Shown: positions 6,164 through 34,280 of the stretch, piece after piece | Layout: every line of letters starts with the position of its first letter | Position numbering within the stretch: the stretch's first letter is position 1 | NCBI GenBank assembly: GCA_038045885.1 | Contig: JBBSXG010000030.1 | Coordinates: 1-43,941 of the forward strand | Direction of reading: 5' to 3' | DNA: 43,941 nucleotides | DNA from: Nanobdellota archaeon | GTDB lineage: Archaea > Nanobdellota > Nanobdellia > SCGC-AAA011-G17 > GW2011-AR20 | Translations under genes and position numbers: made by a program | Notes under the pieces: model-generated | What the model saw: the letters and a program-made list of their open reading frames with translations, nothing else | What the model was told of the DNA's origin: nothing | The model's database searches: none

Positions 6164-6726
6164 ATTAATTTAAAACTCTTAAGTCCTTTAATTAACTGAA
6201 AATAATTTCTAAACAAGATAGAATTTATTTTTAATTTTCTTGCTGTTTTTATATTATCTTTTCTATCATCAATAAATAAACATTCTTCTGGTCTTAAGTT
6301 CAATTTTCTTAAAGTTAATTTATATATTGCGATGTAAGGTTTTCTCATTCTAAGCTTATAAGAATTAATTCCAAATAAAAATCCTTTGTATACTCCCTGT
6401 CTTTTTCTGACTATATAATGTTCTTTAAAAGTATTTGATAAATAGATTACTTTATATTTTTTATTTAATTTAAAAACCAGATTTTTAACTTTCTTATTAA
6501 TCATACTTTTTTTTGCGGCTTCAATATAAATTTTTCTTAAGTTTAAATTAGCATATTTCTTGTATATTTCTTCAAGTTGCGCCAATGTAATATTTCCGGA
6601 ATCAAGCATTTTATTATATTTCGCATAATACTTAATAAAAAATTTATTATTAACCTCTTTTCTAATTTCCTTGCCTAAGTTGTTTACGACAACCCCTCCA
6701 ATATCAAATATTATTGCTTTTATCAT
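6160..6726 (-). CDS. HAD-superfamily hydrolase (subfamily IA-like)
   Basis: Motif I IIFDIGGVV (D-x-G variant), and a later LSNT and FIDDRKDNI (motif IV). Confidence 0.65.
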   Translation of the reverse strand: MIKAIIFDIGGVVVNNLGKEIRKEVNNKFFIKYYAKYNKMLDSGNITLAQLEEIYKKYANLNLRKIYIEAAKKSMINKKVKNLVFKLNKKYKVIYLSNTFKEHYIVRKRQGVYKGFLFGINSYKLRMRKPYIAIYKLTLRKLNLRPEECLFIDDRKDNIKTARKLKINSILFRNYFQLIKGLKSFKLI

Positions 6727-7670
6727 TTTCCAGCATCGTAAATCTCGGTAGCTATTCTCATAACCTTATTATCCTCTCTTAAATGCTTAAAGATTATTTC
6801 TCCATTATTATTAACTATGACTTGTTCACCTTCTATTTCTAATAATAAAGTATTCCCCGCATCCCTTAATTCTCCAAAATTATCTTTTATCTTTTTCATA
6901 TTCAATTTTGTATTTGTTTTTACCATTAAAGTTGCTTTAGTTTTGCATAATTCAAGTTTAAATTTTTTATTTAATATTCCGCCATTACAAACTTCACATT
7001 CAGGATTTTTGTTTACCTTTATTCTCTCAAAAGAATTATTTTCTAGATTAACCCGGATTAAACTGTCTTCATAATTTTTATTCAATAATATCTTTAAACT
7101 TTCATTAACTTGTAAACTTGAGATTAAAGTTGTTATTGTATTTAAAACTCCTAAATCTTCACATCTGTCCATTGAATTAATATTCTCGTAAATGCAATTA
7201 AAGCATGCTTTTCCAGGAATTACATTAAAAAGATTTCCTTGATTTTCAATAGCAGCAGCGTGTATCCATGGAATCTTATGTTTAGAGCAGTAATCATTTA
7301 TCAAAAATCTTGTTTCTAGATTATCTGTGCAGTCTAAAACTAAGTCTGCATTAATTAAATTAATATTTTCATTCTTTAATTCAACATCATAAGCTAAAAT
7401 TTTTATTTGAGAATTAACCTTTTCAAGGTAATCTTTTGCAGCCAATGCCTTATTATTATTAATATCTTTCTCAGAGAAAATATTTTGCCTTTGTAGATTA
7501 GTCAAGTCAACTTTGTCATTATCGATTAACACTAAATTAACCCCTGCCCTTGCTAACAAGTTGCTTGAGTTAGTTCCTAAAGCTCCTAATCCAACTATAG
7601 CAACAATTTTTTGATTAAGTAATTCTTGACCCTTGCTTCCGATTAATGTTTCCTGCCTTGAATATCTCAT
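6723..7670 (-). CDS. E1-like adenylyltransferase of the ThiF/MoeB/UbaA/TtuC family with a C-terminal extension
   Basis: RYSRQ, IVGLGALGT, VLIDNDKVDLTNLQRQ, CFNC and CEVC pairs, and DRCEDLGVLN. Confidence 0.85.
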   Translation of the reverse strand: MRYSRQETLIGSKGQELLNQKIVAIVGLGALGTNSSNLLARAGVNLVLIDNDKVDLTNLQRQNIFSEKDINNNKALAAKDYLEKVNSQIKILAYDVELKNENINLINADLVLDCTDNLETRFLINDYCSKHKIPWIHAAAIENQGNLFNVIPGKACFNCIYENINSMDRCEDLGVLNTITTLISSLQVNESLKILLNKNYEDSLIRVNLENNSFERIKVNKNPECEVCNGGILNKKFKLELCKTKATLMVKTNTKLNMKKIKDNFGELRDAGNTLLLEIEGEQVIVNNNGEIIFKHLREDNKVMRIATEIYDAGK

Positions 7671-7692
7671 AAAAATTAATTGTAAAACAAGG

Positions 7693-7700
7693 TTTTTAAA
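7693..7700. promoter_or_regulatory. Shared quasi-palindromic BRE/TATA element (AAGG-TTTTTAAA-CCTT) for divergent leaderless genes
   Basis: Its centre is 28.5 nt from the ATG at 7725 (+) and 26.5 nt from the ATG at 7670 (-). It is the only TATA-like element in the 54-bp spacer. Confidence 0.4.
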
Positions 7701-7724
7701 CCTTTATTAATTGAAGTTCTTATT

Positions 7725-9602
7725 ATGCTACAGAGTTTATTAGATAAAGTAAAAAACTATAATGAAAATGCTAATTTTAGTTTAATTATAAGAGCGTATA
7801 ACTTTGCCGAAAAAGCACATTTTAATCAATTACGAGAGTCGGGAGAAGAACACCTGCAACATCTTCTCAATGCAAGCATGATTATAGCTGGGTTAAAGTT
7901 AGATGAAATTAGCATAGCCGCCACTTTATTACACGATGTTTTAGAAGATACAGATACAAACAAGGAAAAATTGGTAAGCGAATTTGGCGAAGAAGTTGCT
8001 AATCTAGTTGATGGTGTAACAAAAATAAGCAAGATAACAATTCCAGATTACAAGTCAAGACAGGTTGAAAATCTAAGAAAGATGTTGATAGCGAGTACTA
8101 AGGATATTCGAGTTATATTAATCAAACTAGCAGACAGATTGGATAATATGTCCTCATTAAAATATCTTAGAGAAGACAAGCAAAAAAGGATAGCACAAGA
8201 AACTATAGAAGTCTATGCTCCAATAGCCTATAGATTAGGATTAGCAAACATAAAATGGCAGTTAGAAGATCTAGCTTTTCGTTATCTAGAGCCAAAAATA
8301 TATCAGGAATTAAAAGAAAAAGTTAGTAAAAAGAGAGAAGAGAGAGAGTTACTGATTAATAAAGTAAAATCCTTGATAGAAAAAGAATTTAGAAAAAGAA
8401 ATTTGGATTTTGAAATATTTGGAAGAGTAAAACATTTCTATAGCATATATAAAAAAATAGTTTACAGGAATTATGAACTAGATAAGATGTATGATTTGAT
8501 TGCTTTAAGAATAATTACCAATGACATAAAAGAATGTTATGAAGTTCTTGGAATCATACACAATATGTTCAAGCCTGTAATGGATAGATTTAGGGATTAT
8601 ATTGCAAATCCAAAATCAAATATGTATCAAAGTTTACACACAATAGTTTTAGTAGATGATTATCCAATCGAGATTCAAATTAGAAGTAAGGAGATGCATA
8701 GAATATCTGAAGAAGGTATTGCGGCACACTGGCAGTATAAAAAATTAAAAAGCAATGAAGATTTCCAGAAAAAACTTGGGTTGGTCCAACAAATATTGAG
8801 CATTAAAGATTTATCAAGCCAGGATTTTCTAGAAGCATTAAAGGTTGATTTATTTGGAGATAATATATTTGTATTTACTCCAAAAAGCGATATAATCGAA
8901 GTTCCAAAAGATGCAACTGTCTTAGATTTTGCCTATGCTGTACATACTGCGTTGGGGAATAGCTGTGTTGGTGCAAGAGTAAATGGAAAATTTGTCAATA
9001 TTAAATACAACTTAAATAACGGTGACGTTGTTGATGTATTAACTGCAAAAAATCAAAAGCCTAGCAGAGACTGGTTAAAAATAGTAAAGTCTCAAAGGTC
9101 TAGGACAAAGATAATGCAAACTTTAAGATTACATGAAATAATCCCAGTTTCAAAATTAAAAAAATTTGAAGCTGTTAAAGATAATATTGTTGTAAGTGAT
9201 TTAAAAACAAATTTCATAAAATTAGCTAAATGTTGCGAGCCATTGCCAAACGATGAAATAGTTGGGCTGAGCACAAGAAATAACAAGATTACGGTTCATA
9301 AAAAAGACTGTGAACAAGCTAAAGACAATAAGATAAAGAAGATAAAAGTTGAATGGAATAATGAACGAGGATTAGTAGTTAATGTCAAAGTTTTAGCTCA
9401 TGACAGAATAGGATTGTTTGCAGACATCCTAAGCAATGTAGCCTCTTTGCATATTAATATAGAAAAAGCTGATTCTCATATAATTAATAAGGATTTAGCG
9501 GAATGTAATATTAAAATTAAGATGAATTCATTGCAAGATATTATTGATGTAATTGATAGAGTTAAAAAATTATCAGACGTAAGAAAAGTTAGCTTGAATT
9601 GA
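7725..9602 (+). CDS. rel: Long RelA/SpoT homologue (bifunctional-type (p)ppGpp synthetase/hydrolase: HD, synthetase, TGS and ACT domains)
   Basis: HD domain: H..QLRESGE, LLHDVLEDT, KLADRLDNM. Synthetase: GRVKHFYSIYKK, DLIALRIIT, DYIANPKSNMYQSLHT, EIQIRSKEMH..SEEGIAAHWQYK. TGS: IFVFTPKSDIIEVPKDATVLDFAYAVH. ACT-like C-terminus. Confidence 0.9.
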   Translation: MLQSLLDKVKNYNENANFSLIIRAYNFAEKAHFNQLRESGEEHLQHLLNASMIIAGLKLDEISIAATLLHDVLEDTDTNKEKLVSEFGEEVANLVDGVTKISKITIPDYKSRQVENLRKMLIASTKDIRVILIKLADRLDNMSSLKYLREDKQKRIAQETIEVYAPIAYRLGLANIKWQLEDLAFRYLEPKIYQELKEKVSKKREERELLINKVKSLIEKEFRKRNLDFEIFGRVKHFYSIYKKIVYRNYELDKMYDLIALRIITNDIKECYEVLGIIHNMFKPVMDRFRDYIANPKSNMYQSLHTIVLVDDYPIEIQIRSKEMHRISEEGIAAHWQYKKLKSNEDFQKKLGLVQQILSIKDLSSQDFLEALKVDLFGDNIFVFTPKSDIIEVPKDATVLDFAYAVHTALGNSCVGARVNGKFVNIKYNLNNGDVVDVLTAKNQKPSRDWLKIVKSQRSRTKIMQTLRLHEIIPVSKLKKFEAVKDNIVVSDLKTNFIKLAKCCEPLPNDEIVGLSTRNNKITVHKKDCEQAKDNKIKKIKVEWNNERGLVVNVKVLAHDRIGLFADILSNVASLHINIEKADSHIINKDLAECNIKIKMNSLQDIIDVIDRVKKLSDVRKVSLN

Positions 9603-10112
9603 TTTTCTTAAGATTTTCTTAAGGATTTTTTTAACAGAGTCATTAACAGTTGTATGTTCTGTGTTTATTACTATATTGTATAATTTCTTGTTTTGATAAT
9701 TTATCCCGTAATGTTTTGTATAATGATTTAATTCCTGTCTTTCTCTTGATAAAGTTTCTTTTAAAGCTCTCTTGTAAGATTCATTATCTCTATTAGATAT
9801 TCTTTTTACGCGAACTTTTAATGGTGCATGCAAATAAATCCTGTATTTAGCTTTTTTTCTAAATAAATAAGCACCCATTCTAGAATCAATTATTACATTT
9901 TTATATTTTTTTGCAATTTTTAGCTGATATTTATCAATGTAATCTATTAAATCGCCATGCTTAGTTAATTCTAATATAGAAATCTTTTCTTTTTTTGCTA
10001 TTTTTCTGAAATAATTTCCTAACGGAAGATATTTGATATGGAGATGCTTTGAAAGTCCTTTTGCAACAGAAGTTTTTCCAGATCCTGGCAATCCAGTTAA
10101 TGTGATTATCAT
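9573..10112 (-). CDS. cmk: Archaeal-type cytidylate (CMP) kinase
   Basis: P-loop ITLTGLPGSGKTS. The overall layout matches archaeal Cmk (IYLHAPLKVRVKRISNRD ... YNIVINTE). Confidence 0.75.
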   Translation of the reverse strand: MIITLTGLPGSGKTSVAKGLSKHLHIKYLPLGNYFRKIAKKEKISILELTKHGDLIDYIDKYQLKIAKKYKNVIIDSRMGAYLFRKKAKYRIYLHAPLKVRVKRISNRDNESYKRALKETLSRERQELNHYTKHYGINYQNKKLYNIVINTEHTTVNDSVKKILKKILRKSIQANFSYV

Positions 10113-26261: not shown

Positions 26262-26334
26262 AGCGTACGCCAGGACTCGAACCTGGGAATGGCTGCTCTG
26301 CAGGCAGCTTCGTTAGCCGCTTCGACACGTACGC
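26262..26334 (-). tRNA. tRNA-Cys (anticodon GCA)
   Basis: Hand-folded: acceptor GCGTACG/CGTACGC, anticodon stem GCTGC/GCAGC, loop CTGCAGA, T arm CCAGG-TTCGAGT-CCTGG, discriminator U. Confidence 0.9.
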
Positions 26335-26337
26335 AAA

Positions 26338-26424
26338 CGAGCCTGATGGGATTTGAACCCACGACCTCTTGCTTTCTCCAAATTTTAGAAGGCAAGCGTT
26401 CTATCCAGGCTGAACTACAGGCTC
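26338..26424 (-). tRNA. tRNA-Arg (anticodon TCT) with a 12-nt intron (26374-26385)
   Basis: Acceptor GAGCCTG/CAGGCTC, D arm GTTC-AGCCTGGATA-GAAC, anticodon stem CTTGC/GCAAG, loop CTTCTA[aaatttggagaa]A, T arm GTGGG-TTCAAAT-CCCAT. Intron AGAA can pair with loop TTCT (BHB-like). Confidence 0.88.
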
Positions 26425-26448
26425 ATTATTATTTTCCTTCCATGAAGA

Positions 26449-27179: not shown

Positions 27180-29642
27180 ATGTTTATGTATAACTTCAAA
27201 GACATAGAAGAAAAATGGCAAGATAAATGGAGTAAAAATAAAACATTCTCTGTAAAAAGATCAGGCAAAAAAAAGTTCTTTAATCTAGAAATGTTCCCGT
27301 ATCCCTCAGGAACACTTCACATGGGCCATACAAGGAATTATTCCATTGGAGATGCTTATTCAAGATTTAAAAGGATGCAAGGATTTAATGTTCTATATCC
27401 AATGGGTTACGACGCTTTTGGGTTACCTGCAGAAAATGCTGCTATTAAAAATAAAGTTAATCCAAAAGACTGGACTTTTGACAATATTAAATTAATGAAA
27501 GAACAGCAATCAAGATTAGGATTAAGTTATGATTGGGAAAGGGAGATAGCAACATGTCTTCCAGAGTATTATAAATGGAACCAGTGGATATTCTTGCAAT
27601 TTTATAAAAAAAATCTTGCTTATAGAAAAGAATCTTTAGTTAATTATTGTAATTCATGTAAAACTGTTTTGGCAAATGAACAAGTTATTGATGGAAGATG
27701 CTGGAGATGCCATAATCAAGTTGAATTAAAAAGTTTAGAGCAATGGTTTTTCAAGATAACAAATTACGCAGAAGAATTACTAAGAGATTTAGAAAAACTA
27801 GAATGGCCTGAAAGAGTAAAAACAATGCAGAAAAACTGGATTGGAAAATCTGAAGGAACATTAGTTAAATTTTCCTTAGAAGATTCAAAAGAATTTTTAG
27901 AAGTATTTACAACAAGAGCAGATACATTACATGGAGTTACATTTTTAGTAATGGCTCCAGAGTACAATAAAGTTTTAGACTTAGTAAAAAATACAAAGTA
28001 TGAAGAAAAGATAAAAAAATTCGTTAGAAAAGTTGTAATTGAGGATAAATTTTCAAGAACTAATGAAGATAAGGAAAAAGAAGGGGTATTTACAGGAAAA
28101 TATGCTATTCATCCTTTAACAAATGAAAAAATTCCAGTTTATATTGCAAATTTTGTTTTATTAGATTACGGAACTGGAGTAATAATGGGGGTTCCTGCAC
28201 ATGATAAAAGAGATTTTGATTTCGCAAAAAAATACAAATTACCTATAAAGGTTGTAATAAATCCAAAAGATAAAAAATTAAGCAAACTAAAAGAAGCCTA
28301 TGTTGAAGATGGGATTTTGGTTAATTCTGGTAAATTTAATAATTTAGATAATAAAAAAGCAATTGAAGAAATAACAAAACATTTGTCTAGTTTAAAATTA
28401 GGAAAGAAAACAACACAATACAAATTACGTGATTGGTTAATTTCAAGACAAAGATACTGGGGGACACCAATTCCTATAGTATATTGTCAATATTGTGGAA
28501 TGCAACCAGTTGATGAAAAAGATCTTCCAATTAAATTACCAGTAGACGTTCAATTTACCGGAGAAGGAAATCCATTATCAAAAAGCAAGTCTTTCTTGAA
28601 TGTAAGATGTCCTAAATGTGGCAAGATGGGAAAGAGGGAAACAGATACAATGGATACATTTGTTGATTCTTCATGGTATTTCTTAAGATATTGTGATCCT
28701 GATAATGATAAAAAGATATTTGATAAAGAAAAGATAAATTATTTCATGCCAGTTAATCAATATATTGGGGGGATAGAACATGCTATTTTACATTTATTAT
28801 ATTCAAGATTTTTCACAAAAGCATTAAGGGATTTAAAATTATTAAATATTGACGAGCCATTTAATAAATTATTAACCCAAGGAATGGTGTTAAAAAATGG
28901 CGATGTAATGAGCAAGAGCAAAGGCAATGTTGTTGATCCTTTAGAAATAATTGATAAATATGGTGCTGATACATTAAGAACTTATATCCTATTCATAGCT
29001 AGTCCAGAAAAAGAATTTGAATGGAGTGATACAAGCATAGAAGGAATTTACAAATTTTTAAATAAAATTTATTTTATAACAGAAAATTTAAGCAAGAAGA
29101 ATGATTTAATTGTTGAGAGTAAACTAAATATGCTAATTAAAAAAGTAACACAGGATATTGAAGACTTTAAATTTAATAATGCTATAATTTCTTTAATTGA
29201 ATTTACAGATTATTTAAAAAGACACGATTACGATAAAAAAACTTTAGAGAAATTAATTTTGTTAATAGCTCCTTTTGCACCTCATTTAGCAGAAGAAGTT
29301 TATTCCAATCTAGGAAATAAAAACTTTATTTCATTAGCTGAATGGCCAAAATCGGATGAGAAAAAGATAAATAATGAATTAGAAAAACAAGAAGAAAGCA
29401 TAGAGAAAACAGTTGATGATGTTAATAACATTAAAAAATTAAGCAACATTAATAATCCTAAGATATATTTATATGTTATTCCGAAAGAACTAGAATTATT
29501 CAAAAACAATTCAGAGTTGTTAAAGAATTCTTGCAATGCAAAAGACGTTAAGGTATTTGCAGTGAATGATAAAAATAAATATGATCCAAAGGGAAAAGCT
29601 TCAAAGGCAAAACCAAGCAGACCATCTATTTATTTAGAATAA
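27180..29642 (+). CDS. leuS: Leucyl-tRNA synthetase, bacterial type
   Basis: [47 protein letters not shown] and VMSKSKGN. It is collinear with E. coli LeuS as I remember it. The TATA spacing favours the ATG at 27186. Confidence 0.95.
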
Positions 29643-32534: not shown

Positions 32535-34280
32535 ATGCAAAGTAATGAATTAAAGACAAAATACTTAGAATTTTTCAAAAGTAAAAAGCATGCCATTATT
32601 CCTTCTAGTTCATTAATGCCAGAGCACGATCCTACAGTATTATTTACGACAGCAGGAATGCATCCTTTGGTTCCTTATTTACTAGGACAAAGGCATCCTT
32701 CTGGAAAAAGATTAGTTAACTATCAAAAATGTCTAAGAACAGATGATATAGAAGAAGTAGGAGATAGTACACATTTAACTTTTTTCGAGATGCTTGGAAA
32801 CTGGAGTCTAGGAGATTATTTTAAAGAAGATGCAATAAATTTTAGTTATGAATTTTTAACCAAGAATTTGAAATTAGACTCAAAAAGAATTCATGTTAGT
32901 TGCTTCAAAGGGGATAAAGACGCTCCAAAGGATGAAGAATCAGCTAGAGTATGGCTGAAATTAGGGATGCCAAAAGAAAGAATTTATTTCTTTGGTAAAA
33001 AAGAAAACTGGTGGGGTCCTGCAGGTCAAACAGGTCCATGTGGTCCAGATACAGAAATGTATTATGATACTCTAAAAGAAAAGTGCTCTAAAGACTGCAT
33101 GCCTGGATGTTCTTGTGGAAAATATGTTGAAATATGGAATGATGTTTTCATGCAGTATAATAAAACAGAGAAAGGTTATGAAAAATTAAAACAGCAAAAT
33201 GTTGATACAGGAATGGGTTTAGAGAGAACAACAATGGTTTTGCAGAATAAATCAAGTGTTTTTGATACAGATTTATTTCAAGATATAATAAAAAAAATAA
33301 GTTCTTTAAGCAATAAAGACGATTTAAGAGCTAAAAGAATTATTGCAGATCATTTACGTGCAAGTGTGTTTATTTTAGCTGAAAAAATTCCTCCAAGCAA
33401 TGTTGAACATGGTTATATTCTAAGAAGATTAATTAGAAGAGCTATAAGATATGGGCATATTCTCGGCATAAATAATAAATTTACAAAGGAAATTGCAGAA
33501 GTTATTATTAAAAGATATAAAAATGATTACAAAGAATTAGGGCAAAATAAAAATTTTATTTTAAAAGAATTTGAAGCTGAAGAAGACAAGTTTGAAAAAA
33601 CATTAGTTCAAGGATTAAGGATATTAGAAAAAGAAATTCCAAATTTAAAGAATAAAGCAATTTCAAAAGAACTTGCATTTAATTTATTCACAACTTATGG
33701 GTTTCCTTTAGAGATGATAAATGAAGTCGCTAAGGAGAATAATCTAAAAGTTGATGAGCATGGATTTAATGATTTATTTGCTAAACACCAAGAAATTTCA
33801 AGACAAGGAGCAGAGCAGAAGTTCAGAGGAGGATTAGCCGATCACAGTAAAGAAGTTGTAAGAATGCATACAGCTACTCATTTGTTACATAAAGCATTAA
33901 GAGACGTTCTTGGGGATCATGTAAGACAAATGGGAAGCAACATAACAAAAGAGAGATTAAGATTTGATTTTGTCAATCCAAAAGCAATGACAAAAGAGGA
34001 AATTAAAAAAGTTGAAGATATAGTAAATAAAAAAATAAAAGAAGGATTGAAAGTTGAAAGGTTAGAAATGAGATATCAAGATGCTATAAAAAAAGGAGCT
34101 CTAGCTTTTTTCAAAGAAAAATATCCTGGAACTGTTTCTGTTTACAAGATTGGAGAATATAGTACGGAATTATGCGGCGGTCCTCATATTAAAAATACTA
34201 AAGAAATTAAAAGTTTTAGAATAATAAAAGAAGAGGCTGTTTCTGCTGGTGTAAGAAGAATTAAAGCTGTTGTTGGTTAA
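32535..34280 (+). CDS. alaS: Alanyl-tRNA synthetase, bacterial type, short form (catalytic plus editing domains, no C-Ala domain)
   Basis: DPTVLFTTAGMHPL, QKCLRTDDIEEVGD..HLTFFEMLGNWSLGDYFK. Editing-domain motifs HTATHLLH and CGGPH. The protein is only 581 aa. Confidence 0.9.
   Translation: MQSNELKTKYLEFFKSKKHAIIPSSSLMPEHDPTVLFTTAGMHPLVPYLLGQRHPSGKRLVNYQKCLRTDDIEEVGDSTHLTFFEMLGNWSLGDYFKEDAINFSYEFLTKNLKLDSKRIHVSCFKGDKDAPKDEESARVWLKLGMPKERIYFFGKKENWWGPAGQTGPCGPDTEMYYDTLKEKCSKDCMPGCSCGKYVEIWNDVFMQYNKTEKGYEKLKQQNVDTGMGLERTTMVLQNKSSVFDTDLFQDIIKKISSLSNKDDLRAKRIIADHLRASVFILAEKIPPSNVEHGYILRRLIRRAIRYGHILGINNKFTKEIAEVIIKRYKNDYKELGQNKNFILKEFEAEEDKFEKTLVQGLRILEKEIPNLKNKAISKELAFNLFTTYGFPLEMINEVAKENNLKVDEHGFNDLFAKHQEISRQGAEQKFRGGLADHSKEVVRMHTATHLLHKALRDVLGDHVRQMGSNITKERLRFDFVNPKAMTKEEIKKVEDIVNKKIKEGLKVERLEMRYQDAIKKGALAFFKEKYPGTVSVYKIGEYSTELCGGPHIKNTKEIKSFRIIKEEAVSAGVRRIKAVVG

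Follow-up and report, generated by a model that had tools for sequence, protein, structure and literature searches.

Can an archaeon possess a complete enzyme of the bacterial Rel type, able both to make and to degrade the alarmone (p)ppGpp, and to which signal would such an enzyme respond? This question is raised by a gene on contig JBBSXG010000030.1 of a Nanobdellota archaeon. The window analysed here is that whole contig (C30; 43,941 nt), which belongs to an 805-kb genome of 125 contigs with an estimated completeness of 83%. An earlier reading of the DNA letters, referred to here as the original prediction, had described the gene as a complete, motif-intact long RelA/SpoT homologue (RSH), and the analysis of the gene, its relatives and its surroundings bears this out. 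We consider it highly probable that the gene product is a bifunctional long RSH of the Rel type, that it belongs to a monophyletic archaeal clade founded by one old acquisition from Bacteria, and that its C-terminus has been trimmed.

The reading frame and its catalytic half

The RSH frame runs from ATG to stop (Table 1), and its product scored 654.7 bits against the NCBIfam model TIGR00691 (spoT_relA), which is above the curated cut-off of 499.2 and places the protein in the family. Because the scores against the equivalog models of SpoT (497 bits, cut-off 947) and RelA (401 bits, cut-off 728) remain below their cut-offs, we treat it as a generic long RSH of the Rel type. The hydrolase and synthetase motifs that had been quoted from the letters were all found in the translation: LLHDVLEDT at residues 68-76, KLADRLDNM at 134-142, GRVKHFYSIYKK at 233-244 and YQSLHT at 301-306, together with DLIALRII and EIQIRS...AAHWQYK. 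The TGS and ACT-like domains named along with them were recovered by Pfam as well.

Catalytic residues were mapped on the phmmer alignment to the closest solved relative, Rel of Bacillus subtilis (6yxa; E 7e-145, query residues 3-467), which runs through the catalytic half without gaps, the numbering being shifted by +7. The hydrolase residues H46, H70, D71, E74, D75, D137 and N141 correspond to H53, H77, D78, E81, D82, D144 and N148 of the B. subtilis protein. For the synthetase, R234, K236, K244, D257 and R262 correspond to R241, K243, K251, D264 and R269, and Y301, H305 and E316 to Y308, H312 and E324; Q318 is conserved too. The concern that key residues might turn out to be substituted on a proper alignment thus did not materialize, as none of the hydrolase or synthetase residues checked is replaced.

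An AlphaFold2 (AF2) model of the protein, built from a 70-sequence alignment, has a mean pLDDT of 80.4, and its N-terminal half superimposes on Staphylococcus aureus Rel with bound pppGpp (7oiw) at a target-normalised TM-score (TMt) of 0.95 and an rmsd of 1.7 Å. The Rel proteins of B. subtilis (6YXA/6HTQ), S. aureus (7OIW) and Mycobacterium smegmatis (8FR8, on the ribosome) and RelSeq (1VJ7) share with the archaeal protein the domain order HD-SYNTH-TGS-...-ZFD-RRM/ACT, where ZFD denotes the zinc-finger domain. By structural alignment the archaeal protein is 44% identical to B. subtilis Rel, with which it shares the hydrolase and synthetase residues, the histidine that stacks on the CCA end of tRNA and the zinc ligands. 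Its top whole-chain structural match is RelA of Escherichia coli (5IQR, 5KPV), which has a similar overall architecture. E. coli RelA, however, combines a dead hydrolase with a full helical domain, whereas in the window protein the hydrolase is intact and the RFRD motif is basic.

Conservation was assessed over 48 archaeal-clade rows, consisting of 38 archaeal loci and 10 unlabelled short representatives. The nine synthetase residues are unchanged in every one of these rows, and the seven HD residues, complete in the window protein, are complete in 39 of the 48. The SYNTH domain would transfer pyrophosphate from ATP onto GDP or GTP, yielding (p)ppGpp, and the Mn-dependent HD domain would break (p)ppGpp down again; the enzyme is predicted to make and degrade (p)ppGpp in the cell. 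In one archaeal sub-branch the hydrolase residues are degenerate (HHG--NN or HHDNKHS, for example) and the synthetase residues intact. Its members are L051, recorded as 'Nanoarchaeota archaeon', and P0128, P0132, P0138, P0155, P0158 and P0185, and they may be archaeal RelA-like enzymes with synthetase activity only.

The charge motif, RXKD in Rel and EXDD in RelA, switches repeatedly within the archaeal clade (homologues L006-L126). RFKD is present in 17 rows and EFDD in 11; the window protein has RFRD (R288-F-R-D291, positions 8586-8597) and its congener KIQD. An acidic motif of the EXDD type, as in E. coli RelA, is hence seen in many members of the clade, but the archaeal rows with EFDD retain their hydrolase residues, unlike E. 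coli RelA. Because this motif tunes substrate use, its unusual variability is what could be cited for a different product, either (p)ppApp or pyrophosphorylated tRNA as made by some toxic small alarmone synthetases, or for a catalytically silent structural role. We regard such outcomes as very unlikely for a full long RSH that exceeds the family cut-off: its synthetase residues are identical to those of Rel enzymes with known (p)ppGpp activity, its N-terminal half has the close fit to pppGpp-bound Rel given above, and an intact (p)ppGpp hydrolase domain is paired with the synthetase in the same chain.

Table 1. Positions in the window of the RSH gene, its domains and the adjoining features
Feature	Position	Strand	Evidence
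ThiF/MoeB-type E1 adenylyltransferase, divergent neighbour, first gene of a tRNA-thiolation cluster	6723..7670	-	Pfam ThiF 1e-59
Divergent E1/RSH intergenic region, 54 nt, with TTTTTAAA core at 7693-7700	7671..7724	.	sequence
RSH open reading frame (ORF), ATG to stop, Rel-type long RSH, 625 aa	7725..9602	+	ORF call, TIGR00691
HD_4, (p)ppGpp hydrolase domain, residues 24-173	7794..8243	+	Pfam E 3e-45
RelA_SpoT, SYNTH domain, residues 233-340	8421..8744	+	Pfam E 2e-38
TGS domain, residues 381-440	8865..9044	+	Pfam E 6e-20
Remnant of the helical (AH) domain, residues 450-470	9072..9134	+	AF2 helices, alignment to B. subtilis Rel
Low-confidence, weakly conserved linker in place of the remaining helical domain, residues 473-488	9141..9188	+	AF2 pLDDT, identity
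ZFD / RIS (conserved-cysteine) domain, residues 489-546	9189..9362	+	PF28438 = RelA_RIS, precomputed
ACT / RRM domain, residues 551-622	9375..9590	+	Pfam ACT_4 E 5e-9
Archaeal-type (d)CMP kinase (Cmk), convergent neighbour	9573..10112	-	TIGR02173 cyt_kin_arch 134.4 bits, cut-off 102.1

Distribution, descent and residency of the archaeal clade

A full-length homologue is present in about 22 of 60 close relatives. We also ran TIGR00691 (E <= 1e-50) against 401 genomes sampled evenly across the phylum and obtained matches in 172 of them (43%), spread over 131 of 281 genera, with 162 above the family cut-off. None of the listed frames has internal stops, and most encode about 620-700 aa; a named record within the clade is 'Nanoarchaeota archaeon' (L051; also P0031). 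That an intact Rel clade has been kept for so long, in more than 40% of the genomes sampled from the phylum, suggests that these archaea with their small genomes use the alarmone. Two relatives with a long RSH gave weak extra matches, one to the HD domain only (G046:C11:9498-9938, a 191-aa frame) and one to the synthetase only (G029:C42:2165-2515, a 253-aa frame), which may be genes for a small alarmone hydrolase or synthetase.

The assumption that long RSHs are rare in archaea, made in the original prediction, does not survive these counts where this lineage is concerned, and the occurrence has also been published. Archaeal long RSHs did not turn up in the study of Atkinson et al. 2011 (PMC3153485). 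Li et al. 2021 (mSystems; PMC8407392) put the frequency of RelA/SpoT at 69.0% in Diapherotrites, 41.7% in Woesearchaeota, 21.3% in Pacearchaeota and 19.0% in Nanoarchaeota, and predict the DPANN genes to be bacterial lateral gene transfers. These are apparently the same family in the same lineages, and our 43% agrees with their 19-42%. In the available portion of that article the subject takes up one sentence on occurrence, and we found there no account of the domain anatomy, the catalytic sites, the monophyly or the trimmed helical domain. Members of the clade already carry the NCBI product name 'bifunctional (p)ppGpp synthetase/...hydrolase'. What is known, then, is the occurrence of RSHs in DPANN archaea, published in 2021, and their annotation by NCBI, which limits the value of the observation as such; our literature search found no description of the trimmed helical domain, the monophyly of the clade or its biochemistry. 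The objection that the clade might prove widespread and well described therefore holds in its first half, as the genes are widespread and reported, but not in its second, as neither biochemistry nor structure was found in the literature searched. Being small and free of membrane parts, the protein should express easily, so that two questions lend themselves to direct experiment: whether any archaeon makes (p)ppGpp, and what turns the enzyme on.

For the phylogeny, 122 RSH proteins were taken from the loci and aligned with cluster representatives from a 1.8-billion-protein library. Trees were built without the helical region and compared the 38 archaeal loci and 10 short representatives with 72 bacterial rows. 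Archaeal and bacterial sequences are split on a single branch with an SH-aLRT support of 99 (LG+G4, 120 rows) and 98 (PMSF C20, 75-row subsample). Within the archaeal part the sequences cluster by genome family, and none falls inside a bacterial group. The pattern is consistent with a single old transfer from Bacteria to an ancestor of this archaeal class; the RSH clade of these DPANN archaea (GTDB Nanoarchaeota) would thereafter have been inherited vertically, with many repeated losses. Two features of the sampling weigh against this history, as the bacterial side of the tree is limited and contains no labelled bacteria of the candidate phyla radiation (CPR), and the 10 short representatives were counted as archaeal by their position in the tree alone.

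A phylogeny had originally been proposed as the means of finding the donor lineage. It yielded a monophyletic archaeal clade, but this clade attaches at the base of the sampled bacteria and no donor can be named. The top-scoring bacterial relatives of the window protein are Firmicutes Rel proteins, with about 53% identity over the N-terminal 75%; the Firmicutes were considered as the donor and not adopted, since the archaeal clade is not nested within Firmicutes Rel on the tree.

This similarity would also be expected if assembly or binning had wrongly joined a Firmicutes-like bacterial rel gene to an archaeal contig, or if such a gene had only just been transferred. Apart from the spread over 172 genomes and the exclusion of all archaeal copies from any bacterial group, the contig itself makes that explanation extremely improbable. 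Archaeal markers flank the gene on both sides of the 44-kb contig (aTrm56, L10P, L15e, TFIIE-alpha, Nre and an archaeal Cmk), and the ribosomal protein L10P carries the archaeal/eukaryotic insertion. Compared with its neighbours, as had been proposed at the outset, the gene is of native composition: its GC content is 0.300 (window genes 0.289 +/- 0.034), its GC at third codon positions (GC3) is 0.240 (0.212 +/- 0.037), and its codon-usage distance ranks in the middle of the window's long genes. The neighbours also recur elsewhere. The order of a divergent E1 (ThiF) gene, RSH and a convergent Cmk, followed at some distance by Trm56, SecF and SecD, is found in the family genomes G001, G015 and G006 too, with G006 consisting of a single 829-kb contig, and G010 retains the RSH-Cmk pair. 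Because the gene order recurs across genomes, a chimeric join is very unlikely, and the view that the contig is archaeal and not chimeric, put forward in the original prediction, is upheld by the markers, the synteny and the composition alike.

Details of the junctions had also been read correctly from the letters. The convergent 3′ ends of RSH and Cmk overlap by 30 nt, as follows from the ORF coordinates and the TIGR02173 match, and the adjoining E1 gene starts 54 nt upstream of RSH in the opposite direction. The TTTTTAAA core in the shared intergenic region lies about 27-28 nt from the start codons of both E1 and RSH and is kept in three family relatives (intergenic regions L127, L128 and L129) despite diverged flanks, which also speaks against a recent arrival of the gene. 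The core is probably an archaeal TATA box that both genes share and that would serve two leaderless mRNAs, one in each direction.

One family relative, G013, is without RSH. There the place next to E1 is taken by a nucleotidyltransferase/HEPN-like pair along with other genes, and no RSH remnant was found in it. The pair (L142, G013:C27, 6998-7906) is made up of a nucleotidyltransferase-like ORF plus another small ORF and, as read from the translations, resembles an MNT/HEPN toxin-antitoxin pair. We considered this 'empty site' as a guide to the history of the locus but set it aside, as it cannot separate a loss of RSH from a gain.

The trimmed helical domain and the regulation of the enzyme

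Because the protein is shorter than bacterial Rel, part of the C-terminal ribosome-sensing region had been suspected to be missing. This proved right for the helical (AH) domain, of which about 75-80 residues are lost, but not for the ZFD/RIS and ACT/RRM domains, which are kept. In B. subtilis Rel, the domain borders are 1-373 for the N-terminal domain, 374-469 for TGS, 470-583 for the helical domain, 584-645 for ZFD and 646-734 for RRM (PMC7797070). The archaeal protein is about 100 residues shorter than bacterial Rel, and the stretch that is residues 470-583 in B. subtilis is reduced to about 20 ordered residues and a disordered linker.

Several lines of evidence locate the deletion. Between TGS and ZFD the AF2 model has only two helices, at residues 450-453 and 457-470 (14 residues), followed by a disordered segment at 473-484 with pLDDT below 50; beyond it, the beta strands of the ZFD reach a pLDDT of 80-90 and the beta-alpha-beta-beta-alpha-beta fold of ACT/RRM one of 85-91. 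The remnant matches residues ~464-481 in B. subtilis Rel; the 6yxa alignment stops at 481. The alignment to M. smegmatis Rel leaps from 546 to 660 while the query moves from 466 to 497, which skips about 83 residues of the M. smegmatis protein. PF28438 (RelA_RIS) is present in the precomputed Pfam annotation, but PF19296 (RelA_AH_RIS) is absent from the window protein and from other homologues of 620-647 aa, and a Pfam scan of the C-terminal third with E up to 10 gave no match to a helical domain.

The same holds throughout the clade. The stretch from the end of TGS to the start of ZFD (query positions 445 to 500) measures 54-65 aa in every archaeal locus versus 112-153 in bacteria; the window protein has 55, compared with ~110-135 residues for a full helical domain. 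The extracted loci encode 620-673 aa in archaea versus 694-790 aa in bacteria. The helical domain is thus trimmed clade-wide from about 114-135 residues to one helix and a flexible linker, with TGS, ZFD/RIS and ACT/RRM retained. Mean pairwise identity within the clade is highest in TGS (55%) and lowest in the linker (15%), and the zinc-finger residues C503, C504, H525 and C529 (CCxPxP...H...C) are unchanged in 48 of 48 rows.

Few bacterial sequences have intermediate lengths between TGS and ZFD, and they are scattered. We examined proteins with a helical region of 70-89 residues as possible stepping stones and rejected them, as they are dispersed among bacterial groups on the tree. P0169, a protein of this kind, adjoins genes for DnaE, a sigma-70 ECF factor and SpoIIE, neighbours which indicate that it is bacterial. 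The intermediate-length proteins look like independent partial deletions and not like ancestors of the archaeal form.

Loss of the helical domain across a whole clade amounts to a natural deletion experiment on the coupling of Rel to tRNA and the ribosome. In B. subtilis Rel, H420 stacks on the CCA end of tRNA (PMC7797070), and its equivalent in the archaeal TGS domain, H407, is unchanged in the 48 archaeal-clade rows and in 140 bacterial rows. The reading that we favour, tentatively and at just under an even chance, is that the enzyme still detects deacylated tRNA when this sits on the archaeal ribosome. The sensing parts would then be H407, the zinc finger and the RRM, and the flexible linker, which might still span the distance from TGS to ZFD on the ribosome, would substitute for the helical spacer. 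That DPANN archaea of the Woese-/Pace-/Nanoarchaeota group mount a true (p)ppGpp stringent response, with a minimal Rel that uses ZFD and RRM to dock on the archaeal ribosome while the TGS histidine reads the uncharged CCA end, seems to us rather unlikely. If the ribosome-coupled reading were true, this would be the first such alarmone system in Archaea, and the helical domain would be dispensable for starvation sensing.

A number of observations weigh against sensing on the ribosome. Because stable binding of tRNA by B. subtilis Rel is seen with TGS plus the helical domain but not with TGS alone (PMC7797070), tRNA sensing could be abolished once that domain is lost. The ZFD and RRM surfaces with which Rel and RelA contact rRNA pack, in Acinetobacter baumannii SpoT, on the Core in a ribosome-independent state, and shorter flexible regions correlate with a compact, hydrolase-active state (PMC9974481). 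The conservation of the histidine, cysteine and RRM residues fails to discriminate between regulatory models because it is equal in all 140 bacterial rows and because the same surfaces are reused in SpoT.

The findings on tRNA binding and on SpoT, together with the reduction of the helical domain to one helix and the absence of a bacterial-type ribosome from the organism, speak for a ribosome-independent, SpoT-like RSH in which the C-terminal domains act as an internal allosteric module or as an ACT/RRM ligand sensor and set the balance between hydrolase and synthetase. We regard this as a credible alternative whose chances fall somewhat short of even. Its model is A. baumannii SpoT (7QPR), a long RSH of full length in which the catalytic half is controlled by C-terminal domains of the same chain. 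This protein is a much weaker match to the archaeal one (phmmer E 7.8e-63, 22-23% identity by structural alignment); its synthetase is dead and its helical domain complete, whereas the archaeal enzyme keeps every synthetase residue. Conservation is strictest in the synthetase residues, which argues against a role as a hydrolase only; the invariance of H407 and the rank of TGS as the best-conserved domain also run counter to the SpoT-like alternative, and the residual linker could bridge TGS to ZFD. Unlike bacterial Rel, the enzyme is encoded in an archaeon, in which the ribosome and the translation factors are different from those by which Rel is activated in bacteria.

Other genes on the contig

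The leucyl-tRNA synthetase gene (LeuRS; 820 aa, positions 27180-29642) matches Pfam PF13603 (tRNA-synt_1_2, the leucyl-tRNA synthetase editing domain) at 2.3e-70, an arrangement that we take to be of the bacterial type, and it may be another gene of bacterial derivation in this archaeon. The AlaRS gene (positions 32535-34280) encodes only 581 aa and stops just after the tRNA_SAD domain; the enzyme appears to be without the usual C-terminal part. On the minus strand, at positions 26262-26425, a tRNA-Cys(GCA) and an 89-nt tRNA-Glu(TTC) are separated by 2 nt, and the extra length of the latter suggests an intron.

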